Below, one piece after another: positions 24,516 to 45,140 of a DNA stretch of 64,000 nt. The translations under genes and the position numbers were made by a program. The notes beneath the pieces are model-generated. The model was not told the origin of the DNA. It did no database searches and saw nothing but the letters and a program-made list of their open reading frames with translations. This DNA comes from a bacterium. Lineage in GTDB: Bacteria; Patescibacteriota; Minisyncoccia; Phycocordibacterales; Phycocordibacteraceae. Positions within the stretch are counted from its first letter, which is position 1. Every line of letters begins with the position of its first letter. The stretch covers positions 448,001 to 512,000 of the forward strand of contig JBBCGK010000001.1 in the NCBI GenBank assembly GCA_037200965.1, in the 5' to 3' direction.

Positions 24516-24549
24516 GCGGTTGAACGATAGCATAAAAAGGTCTGAGTGA

Positions 24550-24585
24550 GTTGCACAACCTCCTTTTTACGAACGATCCTGCAGG
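24550..24585 (-). repeat. 36-bp array repeat, copy 1 (distal to cas genes; 34 nt from the tatD start)
   Basis: Exact match to the 36-mer. Confidence 0.95.
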
Positions 24586-24594
24586 TTAAAAGCC

Positions 24595-24903
24595 GTGACT
24601 GATTTTCATCGAAAGCACGGCTACGACGTGGGGACCGGGAACATGGCGGTCATGTCGCTCAGAATTGGACTACTCATAGAAGAACTGGGTGAACTCCACG
24701 CCGTGGTTTCAAAGGGTGTTGGCGACATTTCAGAGGAACACGCAGACCTCTTGTATCTACTTCTTGGAAACTGCGTCACGCTTGGTATTGATATAGAAAC
24801 TGCTTTCTTTGCAAAACATGCCATTAACATGCGGAGGGAAGCCAAGGTAGTGAGGGGGAACCGCCGTGTATCGGATTGGTCCCATGAAAAATCTCAGGAA
24901 TGA
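24595..24903 (+). CDS. MazG-like nucleoside triphosphate pyrophosphohydrolase (all-alpha NTP-PPase)
   Basis: 102 aa. ...RIGLLIEELGELHAVVSKGVGDISEEHADLLYLLLGNCVTLGIDIETAF is the EExxE...EExxD MazG signature. The start is 9 nt after repeat 1. Confidence 0.7.
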   Translation: MTDFHRKHGYDVGTGNMAVMSLRIGLLIEELGELHAVVSKGVGDISEEHADLLYLLLGNCVTLGIDIETAFFAKHAINMRREAKVVRGNRRVSDWSHEKSQE

Positions 24904-25931
24904 AAGCTACAGTCATCATCGGTGCGCAGTATGGCAGCGAAGGAAAAGGTAAGATTGCAGCTTATCTTTCAGATGAGTTCGCTCGTGCAGTTCGAACTGG
25001 CGGGCCAAACTCGGGGCATACCGTCGAGCGCAATGGCACGTTCTATCAAGTTCGAGCGGTCCCTAGTGCCTTCGTGAACCAACAATGTCGCCTCGCGATT
25101 GGTGCCGGGGCCATAATAAACACTGCCGTACTATTAGGAGAATTAACGGCATGTGGTATTGTCGAGGGGCGTTTGATAGTTGACCCTCAGGCTGTCATAA
25201 TTGATGAAGAATATCAAAATTCGGAACTAGATTTAATCAGTTCGATTTCGTCCACCGGACAAGGCGTTGGTGCAGCAATCGCAGCTAAGGTCTTACGTCG
25301 GAAAGTAACTCTCGCAAGAGACGTGCCCGAGTTGCGGCCACTGCTTGCCGATGTTGCTGGCACGATCAATTCCGAACTCCAACAAGGCCTAGCTGTAATG
25401 ATTGAGGGGTCGCAAGGATTTTTCTTGAGTTTGCATCATGGTTACTATCCGTTTGTAACAGGCAGGGAAACGACCGCAAGTTCATTTTGCGCCGAAGTAG
25501 GAATCGGTCCCAAAGATGTGGGTCAAGTGATTGGAGTTCTCCGCACCCACCCGATTAGAGTTGGCGGCCCTTCGGGACCTCTTCAAGACGAAATCGATTG
25601 GCAGACCGTCACCGCCGAGTCGGGCTACCCAACACCGCTGTTAGAGATAACTACCGTTACCAAACGAATTCGACGCGTCGGGAGGTTCTCAATGGCCGAA
25701 GCTAAACGATCTTTGATGATCAATTCGGCGACCCAAATTGCTTTAAACTTCGTCGACTACTTGGACCATGCAAACTTTGGACTTAGAAGCTACACCGCAC
25801 TGACTGCTTCAACAAAAAAATTCATCGACGCACTAGAGACACAAACGGGAGTTCCCGTTTCGCTGGTGGGCACGGGGCCCCGTAACAGCGATATGATAGA
25901 CTTACGACGCGAAAAGAACCTCCCCCATTAG
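24900..25931 (+). CDS. short-form adenylosuccinate synthetase homologue (PurA family; candidate PurZ-like)
   Basis: GAQYGSEGKGKI (P-loop). GGPNSGHTV. ISSTGQGVGAA. MIEGSQGFFLSLHHGYYPFVTGRETTAS. TTVTKRIRRVGRFSMAEAKRSL. GVPVSLVGTGPRNSDMIDLR. These align along E. coli PurA. The protein is 343 aa against 432 aa. Its start ATGA overlaps the MazG-like stop. Confidence 0.8.
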   Translation: MKATVIIGAQYGSEGKGKIAAYLSDEFARAVRTGGPNSGHTVERNGTFYQVRAVPSAFVNQQCRLAIGAGAIINTAVLLGELTACGIVEGRLIVDPQAVIIDEEYQNSELDLISSISSTGQGVGAAIAAKVLRRKVTLARDVPELRPLLADVAGTINSELQQGLAVMIEGSQGFFLSLHHGYYPFVTGRETTASSFCAEVGIGPKDVGQVIGVLRTHPIRVGGPSGPLQDEIDWQTVTAESGYPTPLLEITTVTKRIRRVGRFSMAEAKRSLMINSATQIALNFVDYLDHANFGLRSYTALTASTKKFIDALETQTGVPVSLVGTGPRNSDMIDLRREKNLPH

Positions 25932-25939
25932 ATACCAGC

Positions 25940-26692
25940 ATGAAAAACCAATACTTTGGCGACTTGAGCGACTATAAGAAGTACGGTTTGCTGCGCACAC
26001 TTTCGATTGAGGGTGAGTGCTCGCTCACTGTGTGTTGGATGCTGACGCGAGATGATCAAAGTACCGACGGGCGGCATACAACTTATTTGGCGGACGTAAG
26101 AGAATGGCGCAACCATGAGCCGTTGGTATTTGATCTACTCGCGGACGCAGTCTTCAAAAATTCCCGTAATCTCGAAATAGTTGAAAAGTCCGGACTAATA
26201 CCGAACTCAAACTACTTTCGTGAGGAAATCGGCGATGCTCCCTCCCAACGGGAAGCTTTTTTTGCCCGATTGGCAGATGAAGCCCGCAATTCTGATATTG
26301 TGTTCTTGGACCCCGACAACGGCCTTGAAGTGAAGTCAGTCCCCTATGGCTCCAAGGGAGCACATAAGTACATTTATCGGTCTGAAATCGAAAAGTTATC
26401 TCGGAATGGACTTTCAATCTTGCTGTATCAACATTTTGGTCGGAAAGAACGGTCTGAGTTTATCCGAGCTATTGCATTGAAACTCATCGATTGGCTGAAT
26501 GTGGAGGAAGTATTTTCACTTCGGACGACGCATACCGTATTTTTTCTTGTGCCGAAAGCTGCCCACAGGTCGCGAATAGATCGATCCCTCCAGGCAGTAA
26601 ATAGACAATGGGGAGATAAGATCTTTATCGAGATACACTCTAAGGAGTCTGTATCAACGGTTACAACGAAAAATCAGTTAGACCTACTCTAA
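25940..26692 (+). CDS. hypothetical protein
   Basis: 250-aa ORF that is AT-richer than the core genome. No confident motif was found. Confidence 0.5.
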   Translation: MKNQYFGDLSDYKKYGLLRTLSIEGECSLTVCWMLTRDDQSTDGRHTTYLADVREWRNHEPLVFDLLADAVFKNSRNLEIVEKSGLIPNSNYFREEIGDAPSQREAFFARLADEARNSDIVFLDPDNGLEVKSVPYGSKGAHKYIYRSEIEKLSRNGLSILLYQHFGRKERSEFIRAIALKLIDWLNVEEVFSLRTTHTVFFLVPKAAHRSRIDRSLQAVNRQWGDKIFIEIHSKESVSTVTTKNQLDLL

Positions 26693-26765
26693 GTAAGTGA
26701 GCAACATGGATATTGGAAAGGAGCCTGACTTCGCCTCGGATGCCTACTTTGATAATCCGCAACAA

Positions 26766-26801
26766 GTTGCACAACCTCCTTTTTACGAACGATCCTGCAG
26801 G
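26766..26801 (-). repeat. 36-bp array repeat, copy 2
   Basis: Exact match to the 36-mer. Confidence 0.95.
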
Positions 26802-26803
26802 AC

Positions 26804-27418
26804 GATATCCACAAATCACTGCTGCGCAGCGCGGGCCTCGCGCATCTCTCGGCGGATGAGATTGGGGACTTGAGGGACTTGGCAGCGCATGAGCTACGGA
26901 ATGAGACCGCGGACCGCGGTGGTCTCATGGCGGGATTGCGACTGCGCCTGCAACAATGCGACACACGGCTATCACGCCTTACAGACGCGCTCCTCGACCA
27001 CCTCATCGAAAAGCAGGAATACGAAGCCAAGAAGGCCGCGCTCCTGGGCGAGCGGCGCGAACTGCTAGACAAACTGGAAAGCCCGGAGGCTTCGCGTCAA
27101 CCCGCCGACGGCGTGCTGCAAGCATTGGAACTGCCAGATGTCGTGGAAACACGCTACGAAATGGCTTTGCCGGACCAACGGCGCCGCATTGCGTCTGCAA
27201 TCGCTTGGAACCTAACTGGTAGCGGAAAAGAGGCCGTACCTGAGCTGAAATCTCCGTACCGGGAGATCGTACAGTGGCGTCTTTCCAATCCGGTGCGCCG
27301 TAACGGGGAGCGATCGGAACCTGACATAAAGCTGCTATACGAAGCGCTCAAAGAAGTCTGCCGGCGAGAAGACAAGCCGCCGCAACGTCCCCAACGTCCT
27401 GATGTCTCCGGCATATAA
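26804..27418 (+). pseudogene. coiled-coil protein fragment entering at repeat 2 (possibly the C-terminal part of a recombinase-like protein)
   Basis: The reading frame is open from 26693 through repeat 2 (...CTTSFLRTILQDDIHKSLLRSAGLAHLSADEIGDLRDLAAHELRNE...). It then continues as LQQCDTRLSRLTDALLDHLIEKQEYEAKKAALLGERRELLDKLES. It has no credible own start. Confidence 0.35.
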
Positions 27419-28715
27419 GGCGACATACTTTTTCGAGAATTGTCGCGCCTTATGCCGCGTGAATGTCAGGCAGATGCTGTTCTGCATGGATGCGAGCATC
27501 AGCTACTTCGCCCGCACCAACTTCCGCAACCGAAACCAGCTCTTCGGTGTGAGGCAAGCCGACCGTCTTTCGCACCTGTACGTCATCGGCAAGACTGGCA
27601 CGGGCAAGTCCACCCTCCTTGAAACCCTCGCCCGGCAAGACCTTCGGGCCGGGCGCGGCTTCGCCCTCATAGACCCGCACGGCGATCTCGTGGAACGGAT
27701 CGCGAGGGACGCGCCGGAAGCCGTCTATCTGAACGCCCCCGATCCCTCCCAGCCCTTCGGCTATAATCCGCTCCGGAGGGTCAGGGACGACAAGATACCG
27801 CTTGCCGTCTCGGGCTTCCTCGAAACCCTCAAGAAGCTCTGGCCCGACGCGTGGGGCGTGCGCATGGAGCACGTCCTTAGGAATACGCTGTATGCGCTAT
27901 TCGAGCAGGAGGATGCGCGGCTTCCCGATATCCTCCGCCTCTATGCCGACGAGACATACCGGAAGGCGCTCGCCAAGGGGATTAGGAACGATACCGTCCG
28001 CCGCTTCTGGCTCCATGAGTTCGAGCACTTCCACTTTCGCCAGAGGGCGGACGCCGTGGCTCCGATACAAAACAAGATCGGGGCGCTCCTTGCCGACCCC
28101 ACGCTCTATCGCATCCTCGTCGAGCCAAAGGAGGATATCCGCTTCCGTGCCCTCATGGACGGCGGCGGGGTTCTTCTGGTCAATCTCTCGAAGGGCAAAC
28201 TTGGCGAGGACAGCTCGCACATCCTCGGCGCGCTCATCGTCTCGACCCTGGGCCTTGCTGCCTTTAGTCGGGCCGACAGTCCCCCAACCTCCCGCCGCCC
28301 TTTCTTCGTCTATATCGACGAATTCCAGTCCTTCACGACCCTTATGCTCGCCGACATGATGTCGGAGCTGCGGAAGTACGGCGTGGGCCTTACCTTGGCG
28401 CACCAATATATGCACCAGCTTGAACCCGAGATACGGCATGCGGTTCTGGGGAACGCTGGGACGCTCATATCATTCCGTGTTGGCCCCGAGGATGCGTCAA
28501 TCCTGGCGAAGGAGTTTCAGCCGACGTTTGACACACACGATCTCCTGAACCTGCCTAACCACCATATCTATCTGAAGCTGATGATTGATGGGGTGCCGGG
28601 CGGGGCGTTTAGTGCAAATACAGTCGATCATTCGACGCGGGGAGAGACAAAGCTCGCACCGCTACGAAGGACTTCAGACTTGAATGCGGGCGAAAGCGCG
28701 TCTGACTATGTGTGA
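27402..28715 (+). CDS. P-loop NTPase of the FtsK-HerA/TraG (DUF87 / AAA_10-like) superfamily
   Basis: Walker A SHLYVIGKTGTGKSTLLETL. Walker B RRPFFVYIDEFQSF. DPHGDL. Arginine-finger-like RKYGVGLTLAHQ. The real start may be the internal M at ~27474. Confidence 0.7.
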   Translation: MSPAYKATYFFENCRALCRVNVRQMLFCMDASISYFARTNFRNRNQLFGVRQADRLSHLYVIGKTGTGKSTLLETLARQDLRAGRGFALIDPHGDLVERIARDAPEAVYLNAPDPSQPFGYNPLRRVRDDKIPLAVSGFLETLKKLWPDAWGVRMEHVLRNTLYALFEQEDARLPDILRLYADETYRKALAKGIRNDTVRRFWLHEFEHFHFRQRADAVAPIQNKIGALLADPTLYRILVEPKEDIRFRALMDGGGVLLVNLSKGKLGEDSSHILGALIVSTLGLAAFSRADSPPTSRRPFFVYIDEFQSFTTLMLADMMSELRKYGVGLTLAHQYMHQLEPEIRHAVLGNAGTLISFRVGPEDASILAKEFQPTFDTHDLLNLPNHHIYLKLMIDGVPGGAFSANTVDHSTRGETKLAPLRRTSDLNAGESASDYV

Positions 28716-28850
28716 GCGGGATCACGTTTTTTTGCAGATGGCACGCCCGCGTGGGCTGTTTTGGTAATTGCCATAGCGTCTTGGCAACAACTGGGCGTCA
28801 GTACCTGGCTTCCCTCACAGGTTGAATATATTACAGTATAGCTCAACCAT

Positions 28851-29855
28851 ATGTTGAGTCGCCGCATGCCCGGTATTACCGAATTACTTTTGAAAATCGC
28901 GCCCAAGATCGGCGCAAAAGTGCTGATCGAGCCTGAGTGGGGCTACGTCGGGCAAATCGCCTTCCGAAGCGGTCGCAAGCGGTACTTCCGGTTCTCCAGC
29001 GTTGACGTGAATACGCTGGGCGCATCGGAAGTCGCGAAGGACAAAGATTTTGCGAACTTCTTCATGAAGCACATGGGTTATCCCATCGTGAAAGGAAAAA
29101 CGTTCTTCCGGGACGACTGGGCAGAGACAATCCGCTCCAAGCGAAAGATCACGGCCGCCTATCGATACGCGCGACGGCTGGGATTTCCGGTGATTGTGAA
29201 GCCTAACAGCGGCAGTCAGGGGAAAGCAGTATGCTTGGCTCGCACGAAGCGTCAATTCTATCGCGGAATGCGGGCGACCTTTGAGGTGGACAAAGTCGCG
29301 CTTGTCCAAATACCTGTTTCAGGAAAAGACTACCGCATCGTGGTCTTGGACCGAGAAATCATTTCGGCGTACTACAGGGTTCCGCTAAGCGTCGTCGGCA
29401 ATGGAAAAGCTTCCGTAGCGGCGTTGCTCAAGTCGAAGCAGAAAGAGTTTCGGCGCGCCGGGCGCGACACGGCGATCAGGGCCGACGATCCGCGCATAGC
29501 GGAAAAGCTCGAGCATCAGGGACTGAGCTTCGCTTCCGTTCTCCGAAAGGATCAAAAGGTTTTTCTTTTGGATAACGCCAACCTTTCGACGGGCGGCGAA
29601 TCGGAAGACGTAACGGAAAGCGTGCACAAGGAGTTCAGGAAAATCGCGGTGTCGCTTACGAGGGATATGGGACTGCGCCTGTGCGGCGTCGATCTCATGA
29701 TAGACGGGGATATCTCGGAGCCGCCCAAAACGTATTGGGTGCTTGAAGTCAATTCGGCCCCGGGGCTCGATCATTATGCGAAAAGCGGCGCGGCACAAAA
29801 CAAAATCGTCGAAAAGATGTATACGACGGTGCTTAAGAGCTTGGATCGTGACTAG
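28851..29855 (+). CDS. ATP-grasp family ligase (RimK / cyanophycin-synthetase-like fold)
   Basis: YRYARRLGFPVIVKPNSGSQGKAV. DYRIVVLDREIISAYYR. ANLSTGGESEDVT. CGVDLMIDGDI...YWVLEVNSAPGLDHY. Confidence 0.65.
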   Translation: MLSRRMPGITELLLKIAPKIGAKVLIEPEWGYVGQIAFRSGRKRYFRFSSVDVNTLGASEVAKDKDFANFFMKHMGYPIVKGKTFFRDDWAETIRSKRKITAAYRYARRLGFPVIVKPNSGSQGKAVCLARTKRQFYRGMRATFEVDKVALVQIPVSGKDYRIVVLDREIISAYYRVPLSVVGNGKASVAALLKSKQKEFRRAGRDTAIRADDPRIAEKLEHQGLSFASVLRKDQKVFLLDNANLSTGGESEDVTESVHKEFRKIAVSLTRDMGLRLCGVDLMIDGDISEPPKTYWVLEVNSAPGLDHYAKSGAAQNKIVEKMYTTVLKSLDRD

Positions 29856-29947
29856 CTCGTGTATAGTCCATACGACCGATCTTCCTGACACCAATAGGCA
29901 TCGGCCAAATCGTGATTGCTGACCAACGTTTTGCGCCGAGCGACCGC

Positions 29948-30238
29948 CTAGTCGGGATCGTAGGGATTATTGGTATCCGTGCCATTGCGCGAGGAACCAG
30001 ACGGCGAACTATACGGATCGACGCGCTTGTGACCTTGCTCGCCCGTATAGGGGTTCACGTTTGGATACGTCGAGTAATTGTTATAGGGATTGCTGTCAGG
30101 CGATGAGCGATGGTGTGGCGGAACATACGTGCCGTCCTTCCGCACATAGCCTCTGACACTGACGTCCTTCGCTGCCGCCTCAGCGCCAGTGGCCAGCAGG
30201 GTCGTGAAGACCAAAAGGGCGGCAAAAATCTTGCGCAT
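29948..30238 (-). CDS. small secreted hypothetical protein (Pro/Tyr/Asn-rich)
   Basis: MRKIFAALLVFTTLLATGAEAAAKDVSVRGYVRKDGTYVPPHH... has a signal peptide. Confidence 0.5.
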   Translation of the reverse strand: MRKIFAALLVFTTLLATGAEAAAKDVSVRGYVRKDGTYVPPHHRSSPDSNPYNNYSTYPNVNPYTGEQGHKRVDPYSSPSGSSRNGTDTNNPYDPD

Positions 30239-30348
30239 ATTAACTCCGATCAAAAATGCGGCTCGATGCTAGTTTAGTGGCTGGCGCAGGGCCAGAGGAA
30301 TAATCTTCGCAAGCGTGCGTCAGGCCACGCCCTACGGTAACGCGTCGA

Positions 30349-31314
30349 TCAGTTCGCCTCGTCGAAAATCCCATTCAGGATCGCCCCAAGCCGCACCCCT
30401 GCCGCCTGCAAGCGCTCTTCCACGATGGCGGCGCGGTCTTCCTTGTAGTTGCCGTCGGGCGCGAAGACGCGAACGGCGCCACCGGTATACGTCTCGCTGT
30501 CTTCGGAATAGCGGCAGGTGGTGCCGGAGAGCGTACAGTATCCGGTGTCGGGCGCGCGGGAGACGGTGAGCGATTCGTTGGCCCATACCATCGGATCGAG
30601 CGACGCCTTCCACGTTGCCCGCTGCTCGTCCGTGATTTCCTTTTGAAGAACATTGCCAAACGCCTCGCGCCCAGGGCCTGCTGGCTTCGTCTGCGCGATG
30701 TGGAGATCACGCATGACTTGTTCGGGAATGCAGGTGTCCCACACGGTATGGAGCGCGGTTTTGCCGTCATAGGCGCAGCCCGAGACGCCCTTCACGCCGA
30801 CGCTGTTGCCGCCGCGATCATCGGCATACGAAATGTGGAGCGGCTGGTGTATGTCGCCGAGCCAGTGCCCGAGGAATTTGAGGGCCGTGCGCTTCTTGTC
30901 GGTTGAGGCATTCGGGTCTTTGAGGATGGCGATATCGGCGGGGATGGCCGTGAAAAGGCACGTCGCCGCATTCACGCACTTGGCCTCGGGGAAGCTCGTC
31001 CAATCGCGCGGCATATTGATGAAGTGCTCCGCCCTCCGGCTGCTTTGCACATCGCCCTTCTCGTCCGGCCAGGTGCAGGCCCCGTGGAAGGTTCTCGGTA
31101 TCTCCTTGCCGTCAGCGTCCTTAAGCGGGGTTTCTGAGCGGATAAGCTTGTTGACCGCCTTGCGGGCCGTCGGCGTGAGCTCCTTGTATGCGATCTCGCA
31201 GACCGCCTCGTGGCCGGTGCCGCCGAAGGCGAGGGCACCGCTCGTTGTGAGACAAAGACTGACGAAGCCACCAGCTCCAAACAGCGCAAGAAGAACCCGC
31301 CGACGTCCACCCAT
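30349..31314 (-). CDS. S1/P1-family zinc-dependent secreted nuclease
   Basis: Signal peptide. FGGTGHEAVCEIAY. HFINMP. LKFLGHWLGDIHQPLH. LHTVWD. These are the S1-P1 nuclease Zn-ligand motifs. Confidence 0.8.
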   Translation of the reverse strand: MGGRRRVLLALFGAGGFVSLCLTTSGALAFGGTGHEAVCEIAYKELTPTARKAVNKLIRSETPLKDADGKEIPRTFHGACTWPDEKGDVQSSRRAEHFINMPRDWTSFPEAKCVNAATCLFTAIPADIAILKDPNASTDKKRTALKFLGHWLGDIHQPLHISYADDRGGNSVGVKGVSGCAYDGKTALHTVWDTCIPEQVMRDLHIAQTKPAGPGREAFGNVLQKEITDEQRATWKASLDPMVWANESLTVSRAPDTGYCTLSGTTCRYSEDSETYTGGAVRVFAPDGNYKEDRAAIVEERLQAAGVRLGAILNGIFDEAN

Positions 31315-31444
31315 GTACCCGCTCCCCCTCACTATTCGTGCCCAGGATGCGAGGACTCGCCCTAGCCGAAGAACGGATGATGCCCGGATGATTTCACCCG
31401 TCCAAGAGGAATGTGCGCCTTAGACTTCGTATCGGGCCGGGCCT

Positions 31445-32350: not shown

Positions 32351-32371
32351 CACGAGCGCGGGAAGATACGG

Positions 32372-32660
32372 CATGCGCAAGGCATTCATACTGACGCTGG
32401 TGGCGTTCTCCGCACTTGCGGCAACCCCACTCATCGCGCGGACCACGGATGCGGAAGTCCGGGGACAAATGATCCGCGAGTCCATCGCAAGCTATCCCGG
32501 CAACTGCCCGTGTCCGTACAGCACGATGCGAAACGGGCGCTCCTGCGGCGGGCGAAGCGCGTACAGTCGGCCCGGCGGATATGCTCCGCTGTGCTACCCG
32601 TCTGACGTTTCGGACGATATGGTGCGCGGCTATCGAAGCACGCATGGGCTCGGGAACTGA
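32372..32660 (+). CDS. small secreted Cys-rich hypothetical protein
   Basis: MRKAFILTLVAFSALAATPLIA (signal), then ...SYPGNCPCPYSTMRNGRSCGGRSAYSRPGGYAPLCYP. Confidence 0.45.
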
Positions 32661-32856
32661 TCGATCCGATTGATATCTGGCGAAGCGCGCAAACGCTCAT
32701 CTCGCTCTATGGCGATGAGGCGGAACAGTTCGCGCTTCGCCGCGCCGCTACCCTGCTCGGCGAAGGAGACCGGGAGGGCCATGCGGCAATGGCAAGCGTT
32801 GCGGAAGCGGTGAAGAAGCTGCGGCAGGAGCGGCCCGAAAGCGGCGATGCCGTCCA

Positions 32857-33264: not shown

Positions 33265-33340
33265 TCTCAATCCCGTTATACTATCGATCTCGCAAATTCT
33301 ATGGCGCGAAAACCCCATTGTCGCGCGCAATCTCAGCCTG

Positions 33341-34324: not shown

Positions 34325-34425
34325 CTTCCGTCCCTTGGCTTCCGGGCGGCGATAATCGAATGGCAATTTAAGCTCCGGCAACAAAAAAATGCATAAGGCG
34401 CCAGGCGGCGCCGTGGAGTAATTCC

Positions 34426-37734: not shown

Positions 37735-37770
37735 GTTGCACAACCTCCTTTTTACGAACGATCCTGCAGG
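37735..37770 (-). repeat. 36-bp array repeat, copy 3
   Basis: Exact match to the 36-mer. It cuts into the SpvB/FG-GAP ORF. Confidence 0.95.
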
Positions 37771-37784
37771 TTTCCGTTAATCTT

Positions 37785-39125: not shown

Positions 39126-39127
39126 AA

Positions 39128-39318
39128 TCAGGTACTTTGTACGAGTAATTCCCCGGCACTATTGGCGTAGAGCACCACAGGCGTCTTGCCGTCAGCGCTT
39201 GAGACAGCCATGAGTGCAGGAACAAAGTTTGCGTCCCGCAGATCGTCTACCGGCCCAAAGTCCGACCCGGTAGTGTCGTCGTCCGCCATAAGCGCATGTG
39301 TTGAAGGGTCAGCAACGA
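39128..39318 (-). pseudogene. partial tandem duplicate of the tail-fibre N-terminus, running into repeat 4
   Basis: ...FVPALMAVSSADGKTPVVLYANSAGELLVQ is paralogous to DVPTLIAASSADGKTPVRLYADPTTHRLLI of the downstream gene. The frame begins inside the 36-mer. Confidence 0.5.
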
Positions 39319-39354
39319 GTTGCACAACCTCCTTTTTACGAACGATCCTGCAGG
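39319..39354 (-). repeat. 36-bp array repeat, copy 4
   Basis: Exact match to the 36-mer. Confidence 0.95.
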
Positions 39355-39451
39355 AGTATGAGTACTGATACCGTCCAATCTGCCATTGAATATGCGCGAC
39401 ACTCGCCGTCGTGACGACGTTGAGTTAAGTCAATGGCGATTTATGTTACTG

Positions 39452-39973
39452 TCACCGGACCGGCACGAACCCTTCGGGAAGAAACTGCGTCGGGTCCTTC
39501 CACGGTTCAATAGCAACTGCTTTGGGGTATTTGCTTATCATGTAAGCATCGGTGCAATACACCAAACTTTCGGGATCATCGTCCGAAGGCTCAAGGCCTG
39601 AAAATTCAACCATCACAGATTTCTGGTTGGTAATTTTTCCAAAGGTGTCAATGAACCGCTTGATTTTGTCAAACTCACGCACAAAATCGTCGGGCTCAAA
39701 TAGATAGGAATACACTACTACTGTATTCTCGCCGACGATCCGTTCGGAACCGTCCTCATTTTTCACGCGGAAACGCCCAGCGGCGAGCGGCAATTGGGTT
39801 ACACCGCCATTGATCCGCACCATAATTTCCATGGCGCTATCGACCCATTTGTCAAAATTTTCAACAGGCTTCTGATCGCGATCTTGGTTAGGCAAATAAA
39901 CTGCAAACCGTTGTACCGATTCAGATGTATCGGCACCTAGCGCGGTCTTGAGGTCAAAATCTACGAGCGCCAT
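39452..39973 (-). CDS. hypothetical protein
   Basis: 173-aa ORF that is AT-richer than the core genome. No confident motif. Confidence 0.45.
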   Translation of the reverse strand: MALVDFDLKTALGADTSESVQRFAVYLPNQDRDQKPVENFDKWVDSAMEIMVRINGGVTQLPLAAGRFRVKNEDGSERIVGENTVVVYSYLFEPDDFVREFDKIKRFIDTFGKITNQKSVMVEFSGLEPSDDDPESLVYCTDAYMISKYPKAVAIEPWKDPTQFLPEGFVPVR

Positions 39974-39994
39974 GATCGCTTCCTATTAGCCATC

Positions 39995-40024
39995 AATGAA
40001 AAGGCCCCATAGCCGGGGCCTTAA
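39995..40024 (-). terminator. rho-independent terminator after the PRTase-like gene
   Basis: Minus sense reads AAGGCCCCGGCUAUGGGGCCUUUUCAUU. Confidence 0.6.
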
Positions 40025-40059
40025 AGTAGGCAAAATGCCAAATTGCAACGCTGATGCCG

Positions 40060-40695
40060 CTACCGCGGTCTTGAAGGTCTCCGAATTCCGAGCACCGTTT
40101 TAGGGTCCCGCTTGATCTTTAGAAACCGTCCAAATCCCGAACGAGCGTCTTCAGGTTTCTCCGCTTGTTGGGAAGCTGAACGAATCGCTGTCACTATCTC
40201 GTTAGCAGCTTCTGATATGGGCGGCAAATTTTGCCGGTTATAGTCGCCTGGCGGGATTCCCGCGTGCTTCTTTTTCATATGATTTTCTCCTGTTTCTTCA
40301 CAGGGTTGCGACCCATCGGTCTCAGCCCCGTGTTGATCGGGAGAAAGCCCTTCAAGAATCGGGCCGCGTACGTCGGTTTCCCAGGTTAAGGCTTCGACGC
40401 GAATATCCTGGCCACGGTCCGTCCTTATGCTTTCGCGATGGGGACCATACCCACATAGTACCACAGCGGCATGCGTAGTCGCGCCCGAAATCTCGTGGAC
40501 TATATCCGCAGCAGCGCCAATACCAGCGCCCGTTACTATCAAGTCATAGACCATCAAGATGCGATCACCGGAAAGCGGTTTGTCTGCCGTTATTGCTACG
40601 CCCTTCGCCCAACGCGTCTCGCGATAGATGCAGGCGGGCAATCCGGTTTCGGCGACGAGGGACGAGAGCATCGAAATCGCGCCGACCGGCCCCAT
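40060..40695 (-). CDS. phosphoribosyltransferase (PRTase) domain protein
   Basis: PRPP-binding motif RILMVYDLIVTGAGIGAAADIV. The start abuts repeat 5 at ~35 nt. Confidence 0.6.
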   Translation of the reverse strand: MGPVGAISMLSSLVAETGLPACIYRETRWAKGVAITADKPLSGDRILMVYDLIVTGAGIGAAADIVHEISGATTHAAVVLCGYGPHRESIRTDRGQDIRVEALTWETDVRGPILEGLSPDQHGAETDGSQPCEETGENHMKKKHAGIPPGDYNRQNLPPISEAANEIVTAIRSASQQAEKPEDARSGFGRFLKIKRDPKTVLGIRRPSRPR

Positions 40696-40729
40696 CTCTT
40701 TTTCGATAAAGCACAATCGCGTAATGCCG

Positions 40730-40765
40730 GTTGCACAACCTCCTTTTTACGAACGATCCTGCAGG
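40730..40765 (-). repeat. 36-bp array repeat, copy 5
   Basis: Exact match to the 36-mer. It cuts into the patatin-like ORF. Confidence 0.95.
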
Positions 40766-41363
40766 AAACCATGAGAGAACCCGAGTTGATCTCGGTGGCC
40801 ACGATCTTCAAAGGCGACAACTCGTTAAATTCCTCATAGTTCAGGTCAGCGAACCGAATTCGATCAGGCACTCCATCGTGATCACGACCATTTGCGGCAT
40901 ATAATTCCCGCATACGTTCTCGAAGAACTGTGTTGATGAATTCACGAATGGGCGTTGTGGTGAAAAAGCCTAAGTGCCGCCATATGCGCAGCATTCCAAA
41001 CGTAACTAGGGGAGCTGTTAAAAAAGACAATAATACACCCCCCAACGCCGTAGCGGACAATGCCCATCGAAGTCCCTGGCGGAGGCGAACAAATCTACGC
41101 CAATCATCAGCCCCCAATAACGTTACGGGGGTCAAGTTATGTAGGCTGAGAATATTTTGATCCCTAATGTCGGGATTCATCAAAGTCGAAGCACTGTATC
41201 CCGCCGCGACTAGCGTTGCCACGATCGCGCCAGCTGACGCCCCGGCTACACCTACGAAGGCGAGCCCATTCTTCGCGGCACCCTCCAAAGCACCAATATG
41301 CGCTATGCCCTTAGCACCGCCACCTTCGAATATGCCAAAGGCTGGCCTCTTAGCGTCCATCAC
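40766..41363 (-). pseudogene. patatin-like phospholipase, C-terminally truncated at repeat 5
   Basis: Oxyanion hole FEGGGAKGIAH and nucleophile elbow GASAGAIVATL are present. The reading frame runs straight into the 36-mer (…EINSGSLMVS|CRIVRKKEVVQ) before any DGG catalytic-Asp motif. Confidence 0.65.
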
Positions 41364-41496
41364 TGTATGTATCCTTTCGCAAATCAGGTCGGGGCCTGCA
41401 CAAACGACAGAACATCGGACAGGCTGGTGAAATAATGAGATACCAGCCTTCGCACATTGCTGTTCCGCATACAGATACAGCAGTTGCTAGTTCAAA

Positions 41497-43068
41497 TCAG
41501 TTCAGTTGCTCCCGCACCAACGAAAGATCGTTGAACAACGTTCTCGTAAGATTCGGGATTTTTTCCAGTTTGTCTGCTTGTATTAACTTCGCCATAAAAC
41601 GAATGCTTCCCTCCACTCGCTCGTCATAGAATATTTCGTGCAGAAACTTCCGCCCCTGCCGCAAATCCGTAGCATCAAACAGAAATTCCAGCTTGGCTTC
41701 GTTATCGACCATAGCAACTGCACGCCAAAAGAATCGAGGAAAATTCGCTGTCAGGAGGCTCTTGCGGACTATCTTGCTTAGGGAGGAGCGCGAAACAATC
41801 TCGCGTTTCAGATCGCTTGGGCCATTCAAAAATATGTCCCACTCGAAACGAGCCATATCACTATTGCTCGATAATTTTTTAAGCATCTCTAAAATATGAT
41901 CAAATGCCAGGATAGCATCGTACACGTCGTCAAATCGGACGCGAATTTTGCTATAGAGCGGCACGAGACACAAATCCGCGCGAGCACGGGTTATCTTCGT
42001 CCCACGCTTTCGAGACCAAGTTGTCGTTATGATGTTAGATGGGCCGCTCAGCTTGATCTCAGAGTATGGGCCGATGCCGTCGTCATGCGCATACAGTTTG
42101 GTTATGCGCGTCGCCCGTAGAAGAAAACCCGTGCGAGGTTCGGGTACTATGGGACCAGTTGTGGGCCCAAGGCCGCTGAGTGCGACCGCGTGAAATGCTC
42201 GTTTGCTTTTCTTGGAGCGTTCTAAGTTGAAGTCAAAACTCAGAATGATCGGAATATTGCCCCTCAAGAATGCATTTGCTGCGGCTTGGATATTGGCTCG
42301 CTCGGGCGTCATAAACAAATCCGCTTCGAGACCGACATTGCGCAAAACGCCAGCCATTTGATCGATATCCAAGCCGTCGTTCGGGAGAGCTAGGCCAGCT
42401 GTTGGCAGCGAAGCAAACGCTCGTTTGGTTATTTCAATAGGTGATAAGATTGGATTGTCATACAAATTCGCCGTGCCATGCAGTGTAGTCCACAGAGCGC
42501 TGGTAGCGCATGCGCCAACCTCTCGGTCTTGTTCTTGAAAAGGCAGCGCACGTACAGGCAGATCTATGCCGAAAAGATTTGGTACATATCCGCGCTCAGT
42601 GAGGAAGCGACTCGATGGATTACTCCCAACCGGCGCCAAACACGTTCGCCCAATGATGGTTTCGGGAAGAGGTTTGACAACTACAAAGCCGTGATATCCC
42701 AAGACGTCGAACCTACACTCACCGCGGCCCGAAACGAAAAGCGCTTCGACCATATCTTTATCGAACGGTTGCCGAAAAAAGTGAATTCGTGAACATTCTT
42801 TCGGATAGTTCGCGTGGCATCTCGCGTAGTATCCTGTATGATCTTCGGCGAAATGCTTGTCGATGTAGTCGCGCTCAAATACAAGAGTTTCGATTTTCGC
42901 GGCTTCACAGTAACGAGCTAGAAAAATGACCTGGGGCTTTTGTGCAATTTGCTCCAGTCTAGGTTTAAATGCTCCGGCAACAAAAAGCGCTACCAAGTTC
43001 TCTCGATTGTACTTGAGTACTTGGTAGCGCTCGCCCATGTGATCTAACTGAATATCCGCGTACGTCAC
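41497..43068 (-). CDS. hypothetical protein with a possible papain-like (C39-type) cysteine peptidase motif
   Basis: 523 aa, AT-richer. The segment EQDREVGACATSALWTTLHG resembles the Q...C motif of C39 peptidases. This is weak. Confidence 0.45.
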   Translation of the reverse strand: MTYADIQLDHMGERYQVLKYNRENLVALFVAGAFKPRLEQIAQKPQVIFLARYCEAAKIETLVFERDYIDKHFAEDHTGYYARCHANYPKECSRIHFFRQPFDKDMVEALFVSGRGECRFDVLGYHGFVVVKPLPETIIGRTCLAPVGSNPSSRFLTERGYVPNLFGIDLPVRALPFQEQDREVGACATSALWTTLHGTANLYDNPILSPIEITKRAFASLPTAGLALPNDGLDIDQMAGVLRNVGLEADLFMTPERANIQAAANAFLRGNIPIILSFDFNLERSKKSKRAFHAVALSGLGPTTGPIVPEPRTGFLLRATRITKLYAHDDGIGPYSEIKLSGPSNIITTTWSRKRGTKITRARADLCLVPLYSKIRVRFDDVYDAILAFDHILEMLKKLSSNSDMARFEWDIFLNGPSDLKREIVSRSSLSKIVRKSLLTANFPRFFWRAVAMVDNEAKLEFLFDATDLRQGRKFLHEIFYDERVEGSIRFMAKLIQADKLEKIPNLTRTLFNDLSLVREQLN

Positions 43069-43529
43069 ACTGTGAACGGGATACGCCGACGGTCAGGAGA
43101 AATCTGGTTGGCTTGTTCTCGACTTTCAATTGCCTTGAGCATTGGCGAAAGACGCTTAGCGACTTGCGCAGTAAGATCAGTTCTGGAGGCCGTCGCCTTG
43201 GACTTGGGCCGTGCAGAACTCTTCGTCTTTTTGTGACGCATAGCGCAACCTCCAATTTCGGTGAGCAGGATGTTGCCCTCAGTTCCAGCCCGGCGGGTAT
43301 AAACTCCAACACGGGGATCAAAATCAAGCTCATGGACTTGACTTCCTGGAACGGGGCCGCCTAGGGCTCCCCTGTAACGAATCAGCCCTGTTCTTAACGT
43401 ACCACGAGCGCCTTCGTATCCCCAATATTTTGTATGTGGATAATCCACCAACACAAGTTCTTTGAATGGTGAGGCTGGCCGTTGCCTTTCCTCAGTGGCG
43501 TCGCCGTCCGTTGACCCAATCGCCTGCAT
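43065..43529 (-). CDS. hypothetical protein
   Basis: 154-aa ORF whose stop overlaps the next gene start (ATGA). Confidence 0.4.
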   Translation of the reverse strand: MQAIGSTDGDATEERQRPASPFKELVLVDYPHTKYWGYEGARGTLRTGLIRYRGALGGPVPGSQVHELDFDPRVGVYTRRAGTEGNILLTEIGGCAMRHKKTKSSARPKSKATASRTDLTAQVAKRLSPMLKAIESREQANQISPDRRRIPFTV

Positions 43530-43668
43530 AACAATTTAATGCCTTCCTTCTGGCAGCAGACCACTAGGAGCGGCAGACGGCCGTTCATTATCAGCGTGGA
43601 TCATTGGCTGGACCGAGCCCCAATCGGTGACTGATTCGTACGGCTAAAGACCGCTCGGGTCAACTAAG

Positions 43669-43704
43669 GTTGCACAACCTCCTTTTTACGAACGATCCTG
43701 CAGG
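43669..43704 (-). repeat. 36-bp array repeat, copy 6 (cas-proximal)
   Basis: Exact match to the 36-mer, 32 nt from the cas2 stop codon. Confidence 0.95.
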
Positions 43705-43736
43705 AGTCCGTGTATATTGAGCGGTAACGCGAATTA

Positions 43737-44033
43737 CTAGACAATCTCAAAGGACTTGATCTTATAATACTCCCCGATAACGGCATCGGCAGTTGAATTA
43801 AGTGCGCATGATTTGCAGGAAGAAAATAGATGCAGCCGATCCCGTTTTCCCGTGAATAGCGATCGCATCTTCATTTCAAATTCCCGGCGCTCCTTAAAGG
43901 AAAGGCGTCCGACGTAGAGAGTCTGTTGAAGTGCGGATAAACCATAGTCCTTTGATAACTTTTCCGCGCGGATCTGGCGCTGCCGATTGGCGGTTCTCCA
44001 GGCGACTATTGCAAGGAAGCATGGATCATTCAT
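43737..44033 (-). CDS. cas2: CRISPR-associated endoribonuclease Cas2
   Basis: 98 aa. FLAIVAWRTANRQRQIRAEKLSKDYGLSALQQTLYVGRLSFKERREFEMKMRSLF..KRDRLHLF fits the Cas2 pattern (l.lv.YDi..rrr.k..k.L..yG.r.Q.Svf.c.l...). It is ATGA-coupled to cas1. Confidence 0.75.
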   Translation of the reverse strand: MNDPCFLAIVAWRTANRQRQIRAEKLSKDYGLSALQQTLYVGRLSFKERREFEMKMRSLFTGKRDRLHLFSSCKSCALNSTADAVIGEYYKIKSFEIV

Positions 44034-45085
44034 GGTGCCGCATATTCAAACGGCACATATAAGGGCGCTTTTTCAAGAAATACCCGGCTTAAGAGCTCGC
44101 TCTGTTCCGTAATGGTATTGCGGAGCGTACGGCGTTTCCCGTGATGGAGGACTTTCGACTCGAGGCGCTTAAGCACCGCCTCAACCACCTTGCTCTTTCC
44201 TTGCGCAGAAAGCCGATATTCGATCTTGCTTACCTGCTCGAAATCGCCGCGCTTGCCAAGTTCCTGAGAAATGAAGAGCGGCATGACTGCAGCGTCGACG
44301 ACGGGGACCCGAAACTCTTCGACCAGATCGAGGACGAGCGCGGGCTTGCCGTAACGCTCGGAATGATAAAGTCCGAGATACGGGTCGAGACCGATATAAA
44401 GGCACGCCCGCTCGACTTCGTTATAGAGGATGCCGTATCCGTAATTAAGAGCGCTGTTGAACTTGTCCCTGCCTTGCGGTATCCGGCCCGGGAACTTAAA
44501 AAGCGATTTCATGCCTTGCCAATAGCGCTCTGCAATGGATCCTTCAAGGCCAAGCAGTTCCTCGTTCACCCGGTTGCTCGGAAGCAGCTTCGCTATCGAC
44601 TCAAAAACCGCCTCCGCCTGCATCCGCTCCTTCGCATTCTCCGCACCGTATCGGTCGGCAAGATGGCGCATAAAGCGGATTTGGTTGCGGCACTTACCGA
44701 CAACGAAGGTACGCGCAAGTTCGAAGGATTTAGCCGGATCGGAGGAAGTCGTAAGCTGTGCGCGGCGCAATGTCGCGAGCCCCTTCGGGTCGCTTGAGAA
44801 AATGCGCCCGACGGGTTTCCCAAATGCGCCGAGATAGACGATATCGACTTCGTGCTCGAGCGCGAGTTGCACCGCATGCATGGAAATGGAGGACGGACGG
44901 AGTATGACGATCTTAGCAAGCCGCCGGACCGGATACTCCTTCTTAACCCGGAGAAGCTTTACCGCAGTTCCCCGCTTGCGACGCCTGCCACCCCCAAGCG
45001 GCTTTCGCGGAACCGGGAGACTGACCGTAATACGCTCGCCCGTCGCGCCGATGAAGCTGCCATAGGTATCTATCAGCAAATCCAT
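44030..45085 (-). CDS. cas1: CRISPR-associated integrase Cas1
   Basis: 351 aa. GRDKFNSALNYGYGILYNEVERACLYIGLDPYLGLYHSERYGKPALVLDLVEEFRVPVVD is the Cas1 catalytic-core signature. N-terminal beta domain MDLLIDTYGSFIGATGERITV. Confidence 0.9.
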   Translation of the reverse strand: MDLLIDTYGSFIGATGERITVSLPVPRKPLGGGRRRKRGTAVKLLRVKKEYPVRRLAKIVILRPSSISMHAVQLALEHEVDIVYLGAFGKPVGRIFSSDPKGLATLRRAQLTTSSDPAKSFELARTFVVGKCRNQIRFMRHLADRYGAENAKERMQAEAVFESIAKLLPSNRVNEELLGLEGSIAERYWQGMKSLFKFPGRIPQGRDKFNSALNYGYGILYNEVERACLYIGLDPYLGLYHSERYGKPALVLDLVEEFRVPVVDAAVMPLFISQELGKRGDFEQVSKIEYRLSAQGKSKVVEAVLKRLESKVLHHGKRRTLRNTITEQSELLSRVFLEKAPLYVPFEYAAP

Positions 45086-45091
45086 GGGGCG

Positions 45092-45120
45092 TATATACTA
45101 CCGCCTTGACCTAGTGTCAA
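45092..45120 (-). promoter_or_regulatory. near-consensus sigma70-type promoter immediately upstream of cas1
   Basis: Minus sense reads TTGACA-ctaggtcaaggcggtag (17 nt)-TATATA. The -10 element ends 6 nt before the cas1 ATG, giving a near-leaderless transcript. Confidence 0.5.
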
Positions 45121-45140
45121 GGATCACGCAACGCCCTCGC

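Follow-up and report, generated by a model that had tools for sequence, protein, structure and literature searches.

Known Cas1-Cas2 complexes measure the prespacer. In the type I and type III CRISPR systems with 37-nt repeats, which provide the canonical comparison for the locus described here, a leader is followed by an array of repeats and spacers. In the window (the whole 64,000-nt stretch of DNA that was analysed, from a tiny uncultivated bacterium) a cas1-cas2 pair adjoins repeats of CRISPR type, which enclose gene-bearing segments of kilobase size. The reading that we favour, and hold to be probable, is that of an effector-less, ruler-less Cas1-Cas2 integrase, which would insert long arbitrary DNA at the leader-proximal repeat. 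The first-pass annotation had proposed a Cas1-Cas2-linked array of CRISPR-type repeats holding kilobase fragments, and this proposal is borne out by approximately 20 loci, by the homology of the repeat and by sister strains. It had also remarked that no description of such a system was known to it, and our search found no published account of a Cas1-Cas2 kilobase array of this kind.

The cas1-cas2 locus and its repeats

The 36-mer GTTGCACAACCTCCTTTTTACGAACGATCCTGCAGG occurs six times in the window, with 0 mismatches and always on the + strand (Table 1), in agreement with the six perfect copies in one orientation reported in the first pass. No extra copy was found in the window when up to 3 mismatches were allowed; shuffled sequences predict 0. 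Similarity between the copies stops at 36 nt. The intervals (1375-10933 bp) include no spacer of 30-40 bp, as was claimed earlier, and our coordinates agree with the described distance from the last repeat to the cas2 stop and with the coupling of cas2 to cas1.

Table 1. Coordinates of the array, the cas genes and the chromosomal flanks in the window
Feature	Position	Strand	Description
tatD, chromosomal flank	23718..24533	-	PF01026, 212.8 bits
Repeat R1, distal, adjoining tatD	24550..24585	-	Exact 36-mer
Segment 1 (2180 bp)	24586..26765		MazG/PRA-PH-like ORF, short PurA/PurZ-like ORF (343 aa), 250-aa ORF
Repeat R2	26766..26801	-	Exact 36-mer
Segment 2 (10,933 bp)	26802..37734		TrwB/VirD4-like ATPase, ATP-grasp, S1/P1 nuclease, Endonuclease_NS, HTH, LysR, GNAT, SpvB/FG-GAP gene truncated at R3 (Pfam)
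Repeat R3	37735..37770	-	Exact 36-mer; also in independent MAG contig L003
Segment 3 (1548 bp)	37771..39318		Single complete 446-aa ORF, unknown family
Repeat R4	39319..39354	-	Exact 36-mer; also in L003
Segment 4 (1375 bp)	39355..40729		218-aa and 173-aa ORFs; 222-codon open frame abuts R5 side
Repeat R5	40730..40765	-	Exact 36-mer; also in L003
Segment 5 (2903 bp)	40766..43668		154-aa ORF, 523-aa ORF, patatin-like gene running into R5 (Pfam)
Repeat R6, cas2-proximal	43669..43704	-	In cas orientation CCTGCAGGATCGTTCGTAAAAAGGAGGTTGTGCAAC
Leader, cas2 stop to first repeat (32 nt)	43705..43736	-	Ends ...GACT before repeat
cas2 (98 aa)	43737..44033	-	Overlaps cas1 by ATGA; PF09827, 18 bits (below cut-off)
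cas1 (351 aa)	44030..45085	-	PF01867, 215.5 bits; TIGR00287, 221.5 bits
Intergenic, upstream of cas1	45086..45140	-	Palindrome TTGACActagGTCAA, then TATATA (read from sequence)
metG, chromosomal flank	45141..46571	-	PF09334, 306 bits

The best PDB matches of Cas1 were the Cas1 chains 7cr6 and 4n06. Residues E181, H241, D253 and E256 are invariant in an alignment of 21 relatives (40-88% identity); from the alignment to solved Cas1 we read them as the putative catalytic positions. A Cas2 profile built from 11 clade members gave weak PDB matches, all of them Cas2 chains, and hhalign with a canonical Cas2 of Methanospirillum gave 94% probability (E 1.2e-7); profile comparison thus confirmed the homology to canonical Cas2. 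In place of the YDIT motif of the canonical relatives stands W-R/E-T. A structural reason for the presumed loss of the ruler was not identified.

No terminator-like site was found in the leader. In most of the measured relatives the repeat lies 10-38 nt from cas2, the most distant relative having 71 nt, and their leaders end in GGCT, GACT or TGCT before CCTGCA. Upstream of cas1, the related locus L011 carries TTGACtatcgGTCAA, which is similar to the palindrome of the window. The palindrome/TATATA region was not among the calls of the consensus promoter scan, so that its role as promoter or operator is only a guess.

The array architecture is real and not the result of chimeric assembly. An independent NCBI MAG contig has the same order from R6 to R3 and differs by 8 SNPs over 19,778 bp; Logan contigs of another assembly agree with this order. 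Logan contig L002 consists of segment 3 and 28 nt of the repeat at each end (100% identity), the Logan unitig of segment 3 is unbranched from repeat to repeat, and the Logan contig with cas1-cas2 ends 27 nt into the repeat. In a third assembly (GCA_015689235.1) a contig, judged by gene coordinates, begins approximately 140 bp before R2 and crosses R2. Between 32699 and 32700, inside segment 2, the window runs over the point at which the circular contig of 960,259 bp closes; this joint is spanned, with 100% identity, by the independent Logan contig L057. The same structure in independent assemblies, long-read MAGs and a closed chromosome speaks against the chimerism that the first-pass annotation had wished to exclude.

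Segments between the repeats, related loci and strain differences

Segment 1 has a GC content of 0.485 and an atypical composition; its PurA-like protein shows 33-36% identity to PurA-like/PurZ-type proteins in 219 phage records. In segment 5 the GC content is 0.506 (core 0.569) and the tetranucleotide distance exceeds that of every core window. The family of its 523-aa protein is patchy in distribution, and the best non-self match has 49% identity. The SpvB/FG-GAP family of segment 2 has members longer than 900 aa, and the named homologues are from Proteobacteria; homology to the ~940-aa homologues ends at the R3 junction (residue ~542-545), and the read-through beyond it has no homology. One segment extends from codon ~112 of cas1 through cas2 and the leader; the contig that carries it also has the intact copy, to which it is 99.9% identical. 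For the window segments the searches yielded no external donor, therefore capture from a longer molecule is directly shown only for this self-derived cas fragment.

Segments from different arrays showed no homology to each other, no end motif was found, and neither orientation was favoured (26:16, p=0.16). Inside segments lie incomplete dnaX, ndk, kinase and thyA-like genes. Where open frames abut the boundaries, their median length is 127 codons, compared to 153 at random positions, and when the repeats were removed, continuity over at least 60 codons was seen at 23% of the junctions versus 16% of random pairings. Because their boundaries cut genes at approximately the random rate and one of them is a piece of the own cas locus, the segments look like arbitrary fragments, not gene cassettes, and not exclusively foreign. 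Cuts in mid-gene had been noticed in the first pass, and they stand for SpvB at R3 and patatin at R5, their frequency being approximately random. The idea of stored foreign DNA holds for kilobase heterologous fragments and fails for the copy of the own cas locus. The analogy to an integron, also drawn then, is weakened by the random gene cutting.

In approximately 20 loci, with Cas1 proteins 40-88% identical, cas2 is followed by a homologous 36-37-nt repeat (clade consensus CCTGCACAnnnnnGTCGCAAAAAGGATATTGTGCAAC), which has a short terminal inverted symmetry (CCTGCA...TGCAAC). The hosts belong to Patescibacteria/CPR and to a small number of further uncultivated lineages; the assemblies behind the loci are MEGAHIT k141, SPAdes and MFD-series, and long-read MAGs and a closed 876-kb chromosome are among them. 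Repeats unlinked to cas genes had been named in the first pass as a possible objection; in the 18 arrays covered, 57 copies lie on the downstream side of cas2 and 1 on its upstream side, and every copy is on the cas strand. The 39 measured intervals range from 140 to 12,050 bp and none has normal spacer length. Within one array the repeats hardly ever differ, and a degenerate distal copy was not seen. Roughly half of the loci have a single repeat, thus array activity may be rare. A search for the repeat in related genomes, suggested at the outset, led to distant Cas1 relatives (~30-35% identity) with a homologous 37-nt repeat and normal 33-38-bp spacers.

Linked effector genes were not found in the window. 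In a scan of 114 ORFs from the upstream side of cas1 (23 loci), no Cas family is present in the 25 most recurrent families and no recombinase is conserved with the cas1-cas2-repeat module; Phage_integrase domains occur in 4 member ORFs. One segment of L011 encodes a tyrosine recombinase. The genomic surroundings of the module vary, a genome can carry several copies of it, and one module is bordered by an 18-bp direct duplication. Modules adjoin apparent (putative) tRNA gene 3′ ends; such ends are typical island sites.

Two near-identical strains, represented by L006 and L004, match at 100% identity over 4279 bp, as far as the final base of the repeat next to cas2, and diverge completely from its edge. 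Sister strains thus differ in repeat-bounded units, gained or lost exactly at the repeat edge, as an earlier suggestion to compare sister genomes had envisaged; for the polarity of insertion this is a single comparison, which stops short of the distal end of the insertion, and a deletion by recombination between repeats would look alike.

Proposed mechanism and alternatives

We propose a CRISPR-derived adaptation module, in which Cas1-Cas2 would keep recognition of the short leader and the 36-37-bp CRISPR repeat, and would still insert in a staggered manner at the repeat next to cas2, duplicating that repeat. The part lost would be the length ruler for incoming DNA. Instead of ~35-bp prespacers, the inserts would be arbitrary double-stranded fragments of ~0.14-12 kb from phage-like, plasmid-like, foreign chromosomal or even own DNA. 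Each of the two fragment ends may be gripped on its own while the middle forms a loop, and this would account for the absence of inserts shorter than ~140 bp. The outcome would be an archive of long fragments, each between identical repeats. Catalysis of the insertions by Cas1-Cas2 is what we infer from the conserved linkage. For the biological role our best guess is a by-product or a low-rate device for DNA capture and memory in DNA-scavenging symbionts, not RNA-guided immunity. The locus suggests that there is a natural enzyme by which long pieces of DNA are written into a single fixed site of the genome.

Integron-like site-specific recombination, in which the repeat is an att site where circular or repeat-bearing DNA enters and leaves, and linear fragments are not integrated by their ends, is unlikely. 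The agent could be a reversible Cas1-Cas2 or an unlinked recombinase. The arrays adjoin an integrase-type gene pair, identical sites border each unit, some segments (1 and 3) hold whole genes or operons, and the L011 recombinase and the upstream Phage_integrase domains fit this view. However, the module has no conserved recombinase as a partner, its sites are perfect direct copies and not variable attC-like hairpins, segments go down to 140 bp and include internal gene fragments, and no segment is common to two arrays, unlike circulating cassettes.

That the locus is a decaying or inactive CRISPR relic is hardly likely. Its repeats would be recombination hot spots, and its long intervals would have come about without Cas1-Cas2, when unrelated insertions, rearrangements or the growth of an island separated old repeats. 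The lack of linked effector genes, the many single-repeat loci, the variable contexts and the adjoining putative tRNA gene 3′ ends agree with a relic; but cas1 and cas2 are intact, with the four Cas1 residues invariant, arrays lack degenerate distal repeats, 0 of 39 intervals are of spacer length, and strain differences start exactly at the repeat edge.

It is highly improbable that the 36-mer is a small mobile or spreading sequence (MITE/REP-like, or repeats inserted by Cas1-Cas2) peppering a pre-existing island beside cas2. Its terminal inverted symmetry would suit such an element, but repeat removal leaves genes unjoined, SpvB homology stops at the junction, the copies keep to one strand downstream of cas2 (57 against 1), and sister strains differ by whole segments. 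Scarcely credible is an artefact of false joins via a collapsed CRISPR repeat, or of an assembler walking from a spacer into matching phage or plasmid: short-read contigs often stop at the first repeat (L001, L005, L012, L019, L024, L060), which shows it to be a branch point in assembly graphs, but beside the identical segment order in the SNP-bearing MAG and the unbranched unitig, the architecture recurs in MEGAHIT k141 contigs (k > repeat length), MFD-series MAG contigs (138-576 kb) and the closed chromosome.

Comparison with known systems

The ruler-less integrase that we favour shares with canonical CRISPR adaptation homologous Cas1 and Cas2, a repeat homologous to those of canonical arrays near related Cas1, a first repeat just 3′ of cas2 behind a conserved junction, identical one-strand direct repeats around unique heterogeneous inserts, and strain-level variation at the cas-proximal repeat. 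It differs in its inserts, which are 140-12,050 bp with no fixed length versus ~30-40 bp and are in some cases self DNA or fragments of housekeeping genes, in its leader of only ~32 nt, in the altered YDIT motif of Cas2, and in the lack of linked effector and crRNA-processing genes.

Casposons also use a Cas1-family integrase (the Cas1-solo casposase 6opm is a detectable Cas1 homologue, E 7.6e-20), move kilobases of DNA and duplicate a short target; the multiple contexts and copies of the module, and the 18-bp duplication around one of them, are further likenesses. In contrast, Cas2 is present here, PolB and terminal inverted repeats on the inserts are absent, the insert is arbitrary DNA and not the element itself, and the target is a fixed CRISPR repeat.

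As in integrons (IntI, attI, attC cassettes), an array of kilobase units grows beside the gene of the presumed inserting enzyme, and could serve as a reservoir of foreign genes. Unlike in integrons, a tyrosine recombinase is not conserved, identical 36-37-bp direct repeats take the place of variable attC hairpins, and the units are arbitrary fragments which often cut genes and are never common to two arrays.

Although the insertion chemistry is unrelated to that of eukaryotic piRNA clusters and there is no sign here of small-guide transcription or of an Argonaute-type effector, the two are alike, by analogy only, as genomic archives of long invader fragments kept in either orientation.

Direct repeats at kilobase intervals next to cas1-cas2

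The 36-mer GTTGCACAACCTCCTTTTTACGAACGATCCTGCAGG occurs six times in the window, without a mismatch and always on the plus strand. The copies, R1 (distal, by tatD) to R6 (cas2-proximal), are separated by 2180, 10933, 1548, 1375 and 2903 bp of DNA (segments 1 to 5). R6 ends 32 nt past the stop of cas2, which is ATGA-coupled to cas1. The positions, the orientation, the interval lengths, the 32-nt gap and the coupling reproduce in full what the first-pass annotation had described. No extra copy was found in the window with up to three mismatches (chance expectation 0), and similarity between the flanks of the six copies does not extend past the 36 nt.

Coordinates of the features of the locus and its surroundings in the window
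Feature	Position	Strand	Basis or remark
36-mer repeat, R1 to R6	24550, 26766, 37735, 39319, 40730, 43669	+	exact matches
MazG/PRA-PH-like and PurA/PurZ-like ORFs	24595-25931	+	segment 1
27-nt exact direct repeat	39048-39074, 39176-39202		segment 3, 128 bp spacing
cas2	43737-44033	-	clade profile comparison; ATGA overlap with cas1
cas1	44030-45085	-	Pfam and TIGR00287
Palindrome and A/T-rich hexamer	45095-45125	-	directly upstream of cas1
Class I aminoacyl-tRNA synthetase	52714-56085	-	tRNA-synt_1 and Anticodon_1 domains
metG, tatD			chromosomal flanks, either side of the locus

Comparison of the repeat with Rfam, including the CRISPR-DR models, matched no family. Exact 36-mer queries of genome, metagenome and viral collections gave no match; these collections do not include the source genome, and the result is uninformative on dispersal. 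Folding of the repeat predicts an RNA hairpin on the cas strand and none on the opposite strand. Across 27 repeat variants 80.1% of the hairpin was paired compared with 79.5% in shuffles, and the variants gave no covariation support for the hairpin. The 27-nt direct repeat, which lies inside the 446-aa ORF of segment 3, is probably an internal protein repeat.

Such a layout could be an artefact if the assembly path left the array at a short spacer, followed a phage or plasmid genome that matches it and then came back. This idea was rejected because the Logan unitig of segment 3 is unbranched from repeat to repeat, the order of the segments is identical in an independent MAG, and the layout recurs in k141 and MFD-series assemblies of relatives. 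The Logan contig in question consists of segment 3 with 28 nt of the repeat at each end. The 22.1-kb MAG contig from a different assembly (GCA_015655515.1) carries R6, R5, R4 and R3, and is colinear with window positions 33291-53068 with 8 mismatches and no gaps. The misassembly feared at first pass is thus contradicted for R6 to R3 by the order kept in this MAG, and for segment 3 by a contig that crosses it without a branch. Other contigs also carry Cas1, the 446-aa protein, the read-through SpvB ORF and the 523-aa protein encoded in segment 5.

A Logan contig with cas1-cas2 ends 27 nt into the repeat. Because the leader and the end of segment 4 both read ACT directly before the repeat, a k-mer graph would branch near this point, and the stop is no more than consistent with the array layout.

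The window represents the end and the start of the circular 960,259-bp contig JBBCBH010010897.1 (GCA_037975565.1), joined at 32699/32700 inside the 10.9-kb segment 2. The joint is real, since a Logan contig (L057) covering 28569-35164 spans it at 100% identity. Near 33253-33291, two older MAG contigs each break off. The Logan sample with 100% identity may stem from the data that underlie the source assembly, so the independent support for the window genome comes from the 2020-series MAG contigs, which cover R6 to R3 directly and R2 by gene coordinates only, five of the six copies in all.

Related loci and the content of their segments

Cas1 homologues with 50-88% identity are numerous, and those with a source name belong to Patescibacteria/CPR lineages. 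Forty-three related loci were taken from species-representative genomes, and exact protein look-up added several more. They lie on MEGAHIT k141 contigs, SPAdes scaffolds and MFD-series MAG contigs of 138-576 kb, the last presumably Microflora Danica long-read assemblies. One locus, L023, is on a closed chromosome of 876 kb and has eight repeats. A few host labels read FCPU426 or 'proteobacterium', and one MAG so labelled has at least four modules.

In the loci whose Cas1 is at least 40% identical to that of the window (the long-interval clade), a 36-37-nt repeat with the consensus CCTGCACAnnnnnGTCGCAAAAAGGATATTGTGCAAC follows close behind cas2. Where measured, the gap was 10-38 nt for most loci, the most distant locus having 71 nt. 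Further copies are nearly always identical, far apart and on the cas strand. About half of the loci have a single repeat and then more than 8 kb without another. The 39 intervals of the clade range from 140 to 12,050 bp (median near 1.5 kb), and none of the 39 has the length of an ordinary spacer. The kilobase array without short spacers noticed at first pass therefore recurs in about 20 related loci, with a homologous repeat after cas2. Of 38 intervals, twelve measure 1228-1591 bp, near the size of cas1 + cas2 + leader, by size preference or by chance. A MITE or REP element would be scattered, in both orientations and unlinked, whereas in about 700 kb of fetched loci 57 repeat copies lie downstream of cas2 and one upstream, all on the cas strand; in these loci and in the window the repeat does not behave like a dispersed one.

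Segment 1 has a MazG/PRA-PH-like ORF and, coupled to it, a short PurA/PurZ-like ORF of 343 aa, a pair typical of phage 2-aminoadenine (Z-base) clusters. The PurA-like ORF scored 361.8 bits against the archaeal-type PurA cut-off of 368, and 219 bits on the PurZ model. Its product shares 33-36% identity with PurA-like/PurZ-type proteins from 219 phage records; viral contigs yielded no close relative of the gene. Segment 2 encodes a TrwB/VirD4-like ATPase, nucleases, LysR, GNAT and an SpvB/FG-GAP protein. The named homologues of the latter are from Proteobacteria and about 900 aa or longer, and the homology stops at residue ~542-545, exactly at R3. Segment 3 is a single whole gene of no assigned family. 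Segment 5 has a patatin-like gene that runs into R5, and the gene of the 523-aa protein, which belongs to a patchily distributed family. The genes cut at repeats in the first-pass annotation are borne out by the SpvB/FG-GAP and patatin-like genes. The SpvB fragment gave best non-self identities of 45-65%, the 523-aa protein one of 49%, and searches with these two and the PurA-like protein found no external donor for the window segments.

Among the segments of different arrays in the clade no homology was detectable. They hold pieces of housekeeping genes (dnaX, ndk, the C-terminus of a protein kinase, a thyA-like gene), as well as an IS200 transposase, a PemK toxin and dcd. Open frames at segment boundaries had a median of 127 codons compared with 153 at random positions, and reached at least 100 codons in 56% compared with 67%. 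The segment ends revealed no motif or PAM-like signal, gene orientation within segments was unbiased (26:16), and deleting the repeats did not restore gene continuity across the junctions.

A 420-kb contig of a relative (contig_16314 of MFD05512.bin.1.167; L035/L037) has an intact cas1-cas2-leader-repeat, then a 12,050-bp segment and a repeat. The next segment, between two repeats (merged coordinates 23453-24607), consists of cas1 from codon ~112, cas2 and the leader, and matches the intact copy, which lies 13 kb upstream, at 99.9% identity. Own DNA can thus enter the array, at an arbitrary breakpoint. The same MAG contains at least four cas1-cas2 modules, which have ~120 nt of upstream sequence in common. 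In the window, segments 1, 3 and 5 are of atypical composition relative to the genome. The foreign look of the genes, as stated at first pass, does not extend to this segment of self cas DNA in the relative.

The comparison of sister genomes proposed in the first-pass annotation could be made in a related population (Cas1 82% identical to that of the window). Contigs of different samples agree at 99.96-100% identity along cas1-cas2 and the repeat, and differ from the first base past this cas2-proximal repeat: L004, L005 and L009 continue into the chromosomal flank, L006-L008 into unrelated DNA. The difference between these near-identical strains is the gain or loss of a repeat-bounded unit at that repeat and, judged from the contigs, is apparent evidence of recent activity.

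The module itself may have moved. In L004 the 18-mer AGGGAGTATGAGCGGGAT is present at 9969-9986, 14 nt upstream of the cas1 start, and at 11419-11436, directly after the single repeat, so the cas1-cas2-leader-repeat unit appears to have been inserted with duplication of an 18-bp target. Such a duplication was found in L004 alone; none was seen in 16 other loci. In L011, L021 and L023 the module begins within ~100 nt of the apparent 3′ end of a tRNA gene (e.g. GGTTCGAATCTCTCCGCCTCCGCA). These putative tRNA ends would fit tRNA-adjacent insertion of the module.

Cas1, Cas2 and the canonical relatives

The identity of Cas1 is unambiguous. It scored 215.5 bits against PF01867 and 221.5 bits against TIGR00287 (cut-off 71.7), and Glu181, His241, Asp253 and Glu256 are invariant in 21 relatives. 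The closest structures are Cas1 chains (7cr6 and 4n06 were aligned), casposase being a detectable homologue.

Cas2 scored 18 bits in Pfam, below the cut-off of 23.8, and the profile of the long-interval-clade Cas2 found weak matches in the PDB, exclusively Cas2 chains. Despite these weak scores the assignment could be rescued, because the profile aligns to the canonical Cas2 of a distant relative (94% probability, E 1.2e-7). The window Cas2 and that of distant relatives have CKDYG and C-x-x-C motifs in common, and the C-x-S-C conserved in the clade matches C-D-T-C of the canonical relatives. YDIT of the canonical relatives, the motif with the metal-binding Asp of Cas2, is replaced by W-R/E-T in the clade.

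The leader-repeat junction motif GCT/CCTGCA is conserved, and the window leader has just 32 nt. A consensus scan for sigma-70 promoters and terminators around cas1-cas2 called none. Directly upstream of cas1, which has almost no 5′ UTR, lies the palindrome TTGACAnnnnGTCAA followed by an A/T-rich hexamer. An 85%-identical Kaiserbacteria locus has a similar element (L011 9930-9990). The element, at which the consensus scan made no call, may be an operator or a promoter.

Within the 64-kb window we found no genes of Cas effectors or crRNA processing. Among the 25 most recurrent families of 114 ORFs up to 7 kb upstream of cas1 in 23 loci, none was a Cas family. The rest of the window consists of ordinary core genes of small genomes (FtsK, RecA, SSB, several aminoacyl-tRNA synthetases, SHMT). 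One of the synthetases is a protein of 1123 aa, probably IleRS or ValRS, whose catalytic domain is interrupted in its middle by a histidine phosphatase domain (His_Phos_1, residues 502-674).

More distant Cas1 relatives (~30-35% identity), from Methanospirillum, Methanocalculus, a Bacteroidales MAG and an Iainarchaeum MAG, have normal arrays with 26-38-bp spacers. Their 37-nt repeat (e.g. CTTGCAGAAGGGTTCCACAAAAAACAAGGACTGCAAC) matches the long-interval repeat, by eye, at ~22 of 32 comparable positions. The two repeats are visibly related and homologous, and the suggestion made at first pass, to look for the repeat in normal arrays of relatives, thereby led to a counterpart with short spacers.

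Proposed mechanism and comparison with known systems

Starting from the observed anatomy and conservation of the loci, the homology, the arbitrary segment ends and the strain polymorphism, we infer the catalysis, its polarity, the looping and the source of the fragments. On the simplest account, Cas1-Cas2 would still recognise the leader-repeat junction, and two staggered strand transfers 36-37 bp apart would duplicate the repeat. Length measurement of the incoming DNA would have been lost. The complex would hold the two DNA ends separately while the middle loops, a step suggested by few data points. Casposases and transposases hold two DNA ends separately, and double-stranded DNA resists looping below roughly its persistence length. 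Separate holding of the ends fits the data, since nothing between normal spacer size and ~140 bp occurs.

Whether a natural Cas1-Cas2 variant thus inserts any double-stranded DNA, from hundreds to thousands of bp long and independently of sequence, into a defined 36-37-bp site that is duplicated each time, we regard as an evenly balanced question. Biologically this would amount to a prokaryotic DNA archive of a new kind, and technically to a compact two-protein writer of large cargo. RNA-guided interference is not proposed, because there are no linked effectors, no hairpin covariation and no Rfam match. The role may be low-rate capture of DNA imported by scavenging symbionts, or memory read out by a non-CRISPR route, or possibly a gene-acquisition platform. 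It may also be partly selfish behaviour of the module, which is favoured by the varied contexts in close relatives, the tRNA-like neighbours, the multiple copies in one genome and the one 18-bp duplication. There is a substantial chance that the function is categorically new.

A full-text literature search in which journals were partly covered found no published account of kilobase spacers or of Cas1-Cas2 fragment arrays, in agreement with the first-pass annotation, which was aware of none. A fixed short spacer length, set by the Cas1-Cas2 ruler, is treated as defining CRISPR adaptation. A whole clade that stores fragments of 0.14-12 kb with repeat, leader junction and integrase genes all retained would break this rule, and would represent an intermediate, still alive, between transposition of the casposon type and the acquisition of CRISPR spacers. 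It would raise the question of what use organisms with ~1-Mb genomes make of long stretches of foreign and self DNA archived with no effector; the locus, if the reading is true, would serve fragment capture in DNA-scavenging symbionts. The reading is directly testable, since two small genes and a leader-repeat substrate of ~70 bp suffice. If the activity is real, it would be of clear value: an integrase for long DNA that is site-specific yet does not depend on the sequence inserted.

The locus is not a casposon. Casposons have a solo Cas1, a family B polymerase, terminal inverted repeats and 14-15-bp target-site duplications, whereas the window locus has Cas2 and no polymerase, and the segment ends of the clade have no inverted repeats or motifs in common; an 18-bp flanking duplication was seen in one relative only. 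Nor is it an integron, to which the first-pass annotation had likened it. An integron has the tyrosine recombinase IntI, attI, variable attC sites and complete promoterless cassettes. Here there is no IntI and no recombinase is conserved with the clade module, the sites are identical direct repeats without attC, and the boundaries cut genes like random positions, leaving fragments with no units common to different arrays.

The system works like CRISPR adaptation and is built from CRISPR parts. Like CRISPR-Cas loci, the window locus has a Cas1 with the conserved acidic/His site and an adjacent cas2, and its 36-mers match the near-identical direct repeats of 23-55 bp found on one strand by the cas genes. 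CRISPR-Cas systems also have effector and crRNA-processing genes, of which none was found in the 64-kb window. Their spacers are ~21-72 bp and nearly uniform, and the leader upstream of the first repeat is ~100-500 bp long, whereas the window has intervals of 1375-10,933 bp and a leader of 32 nt.
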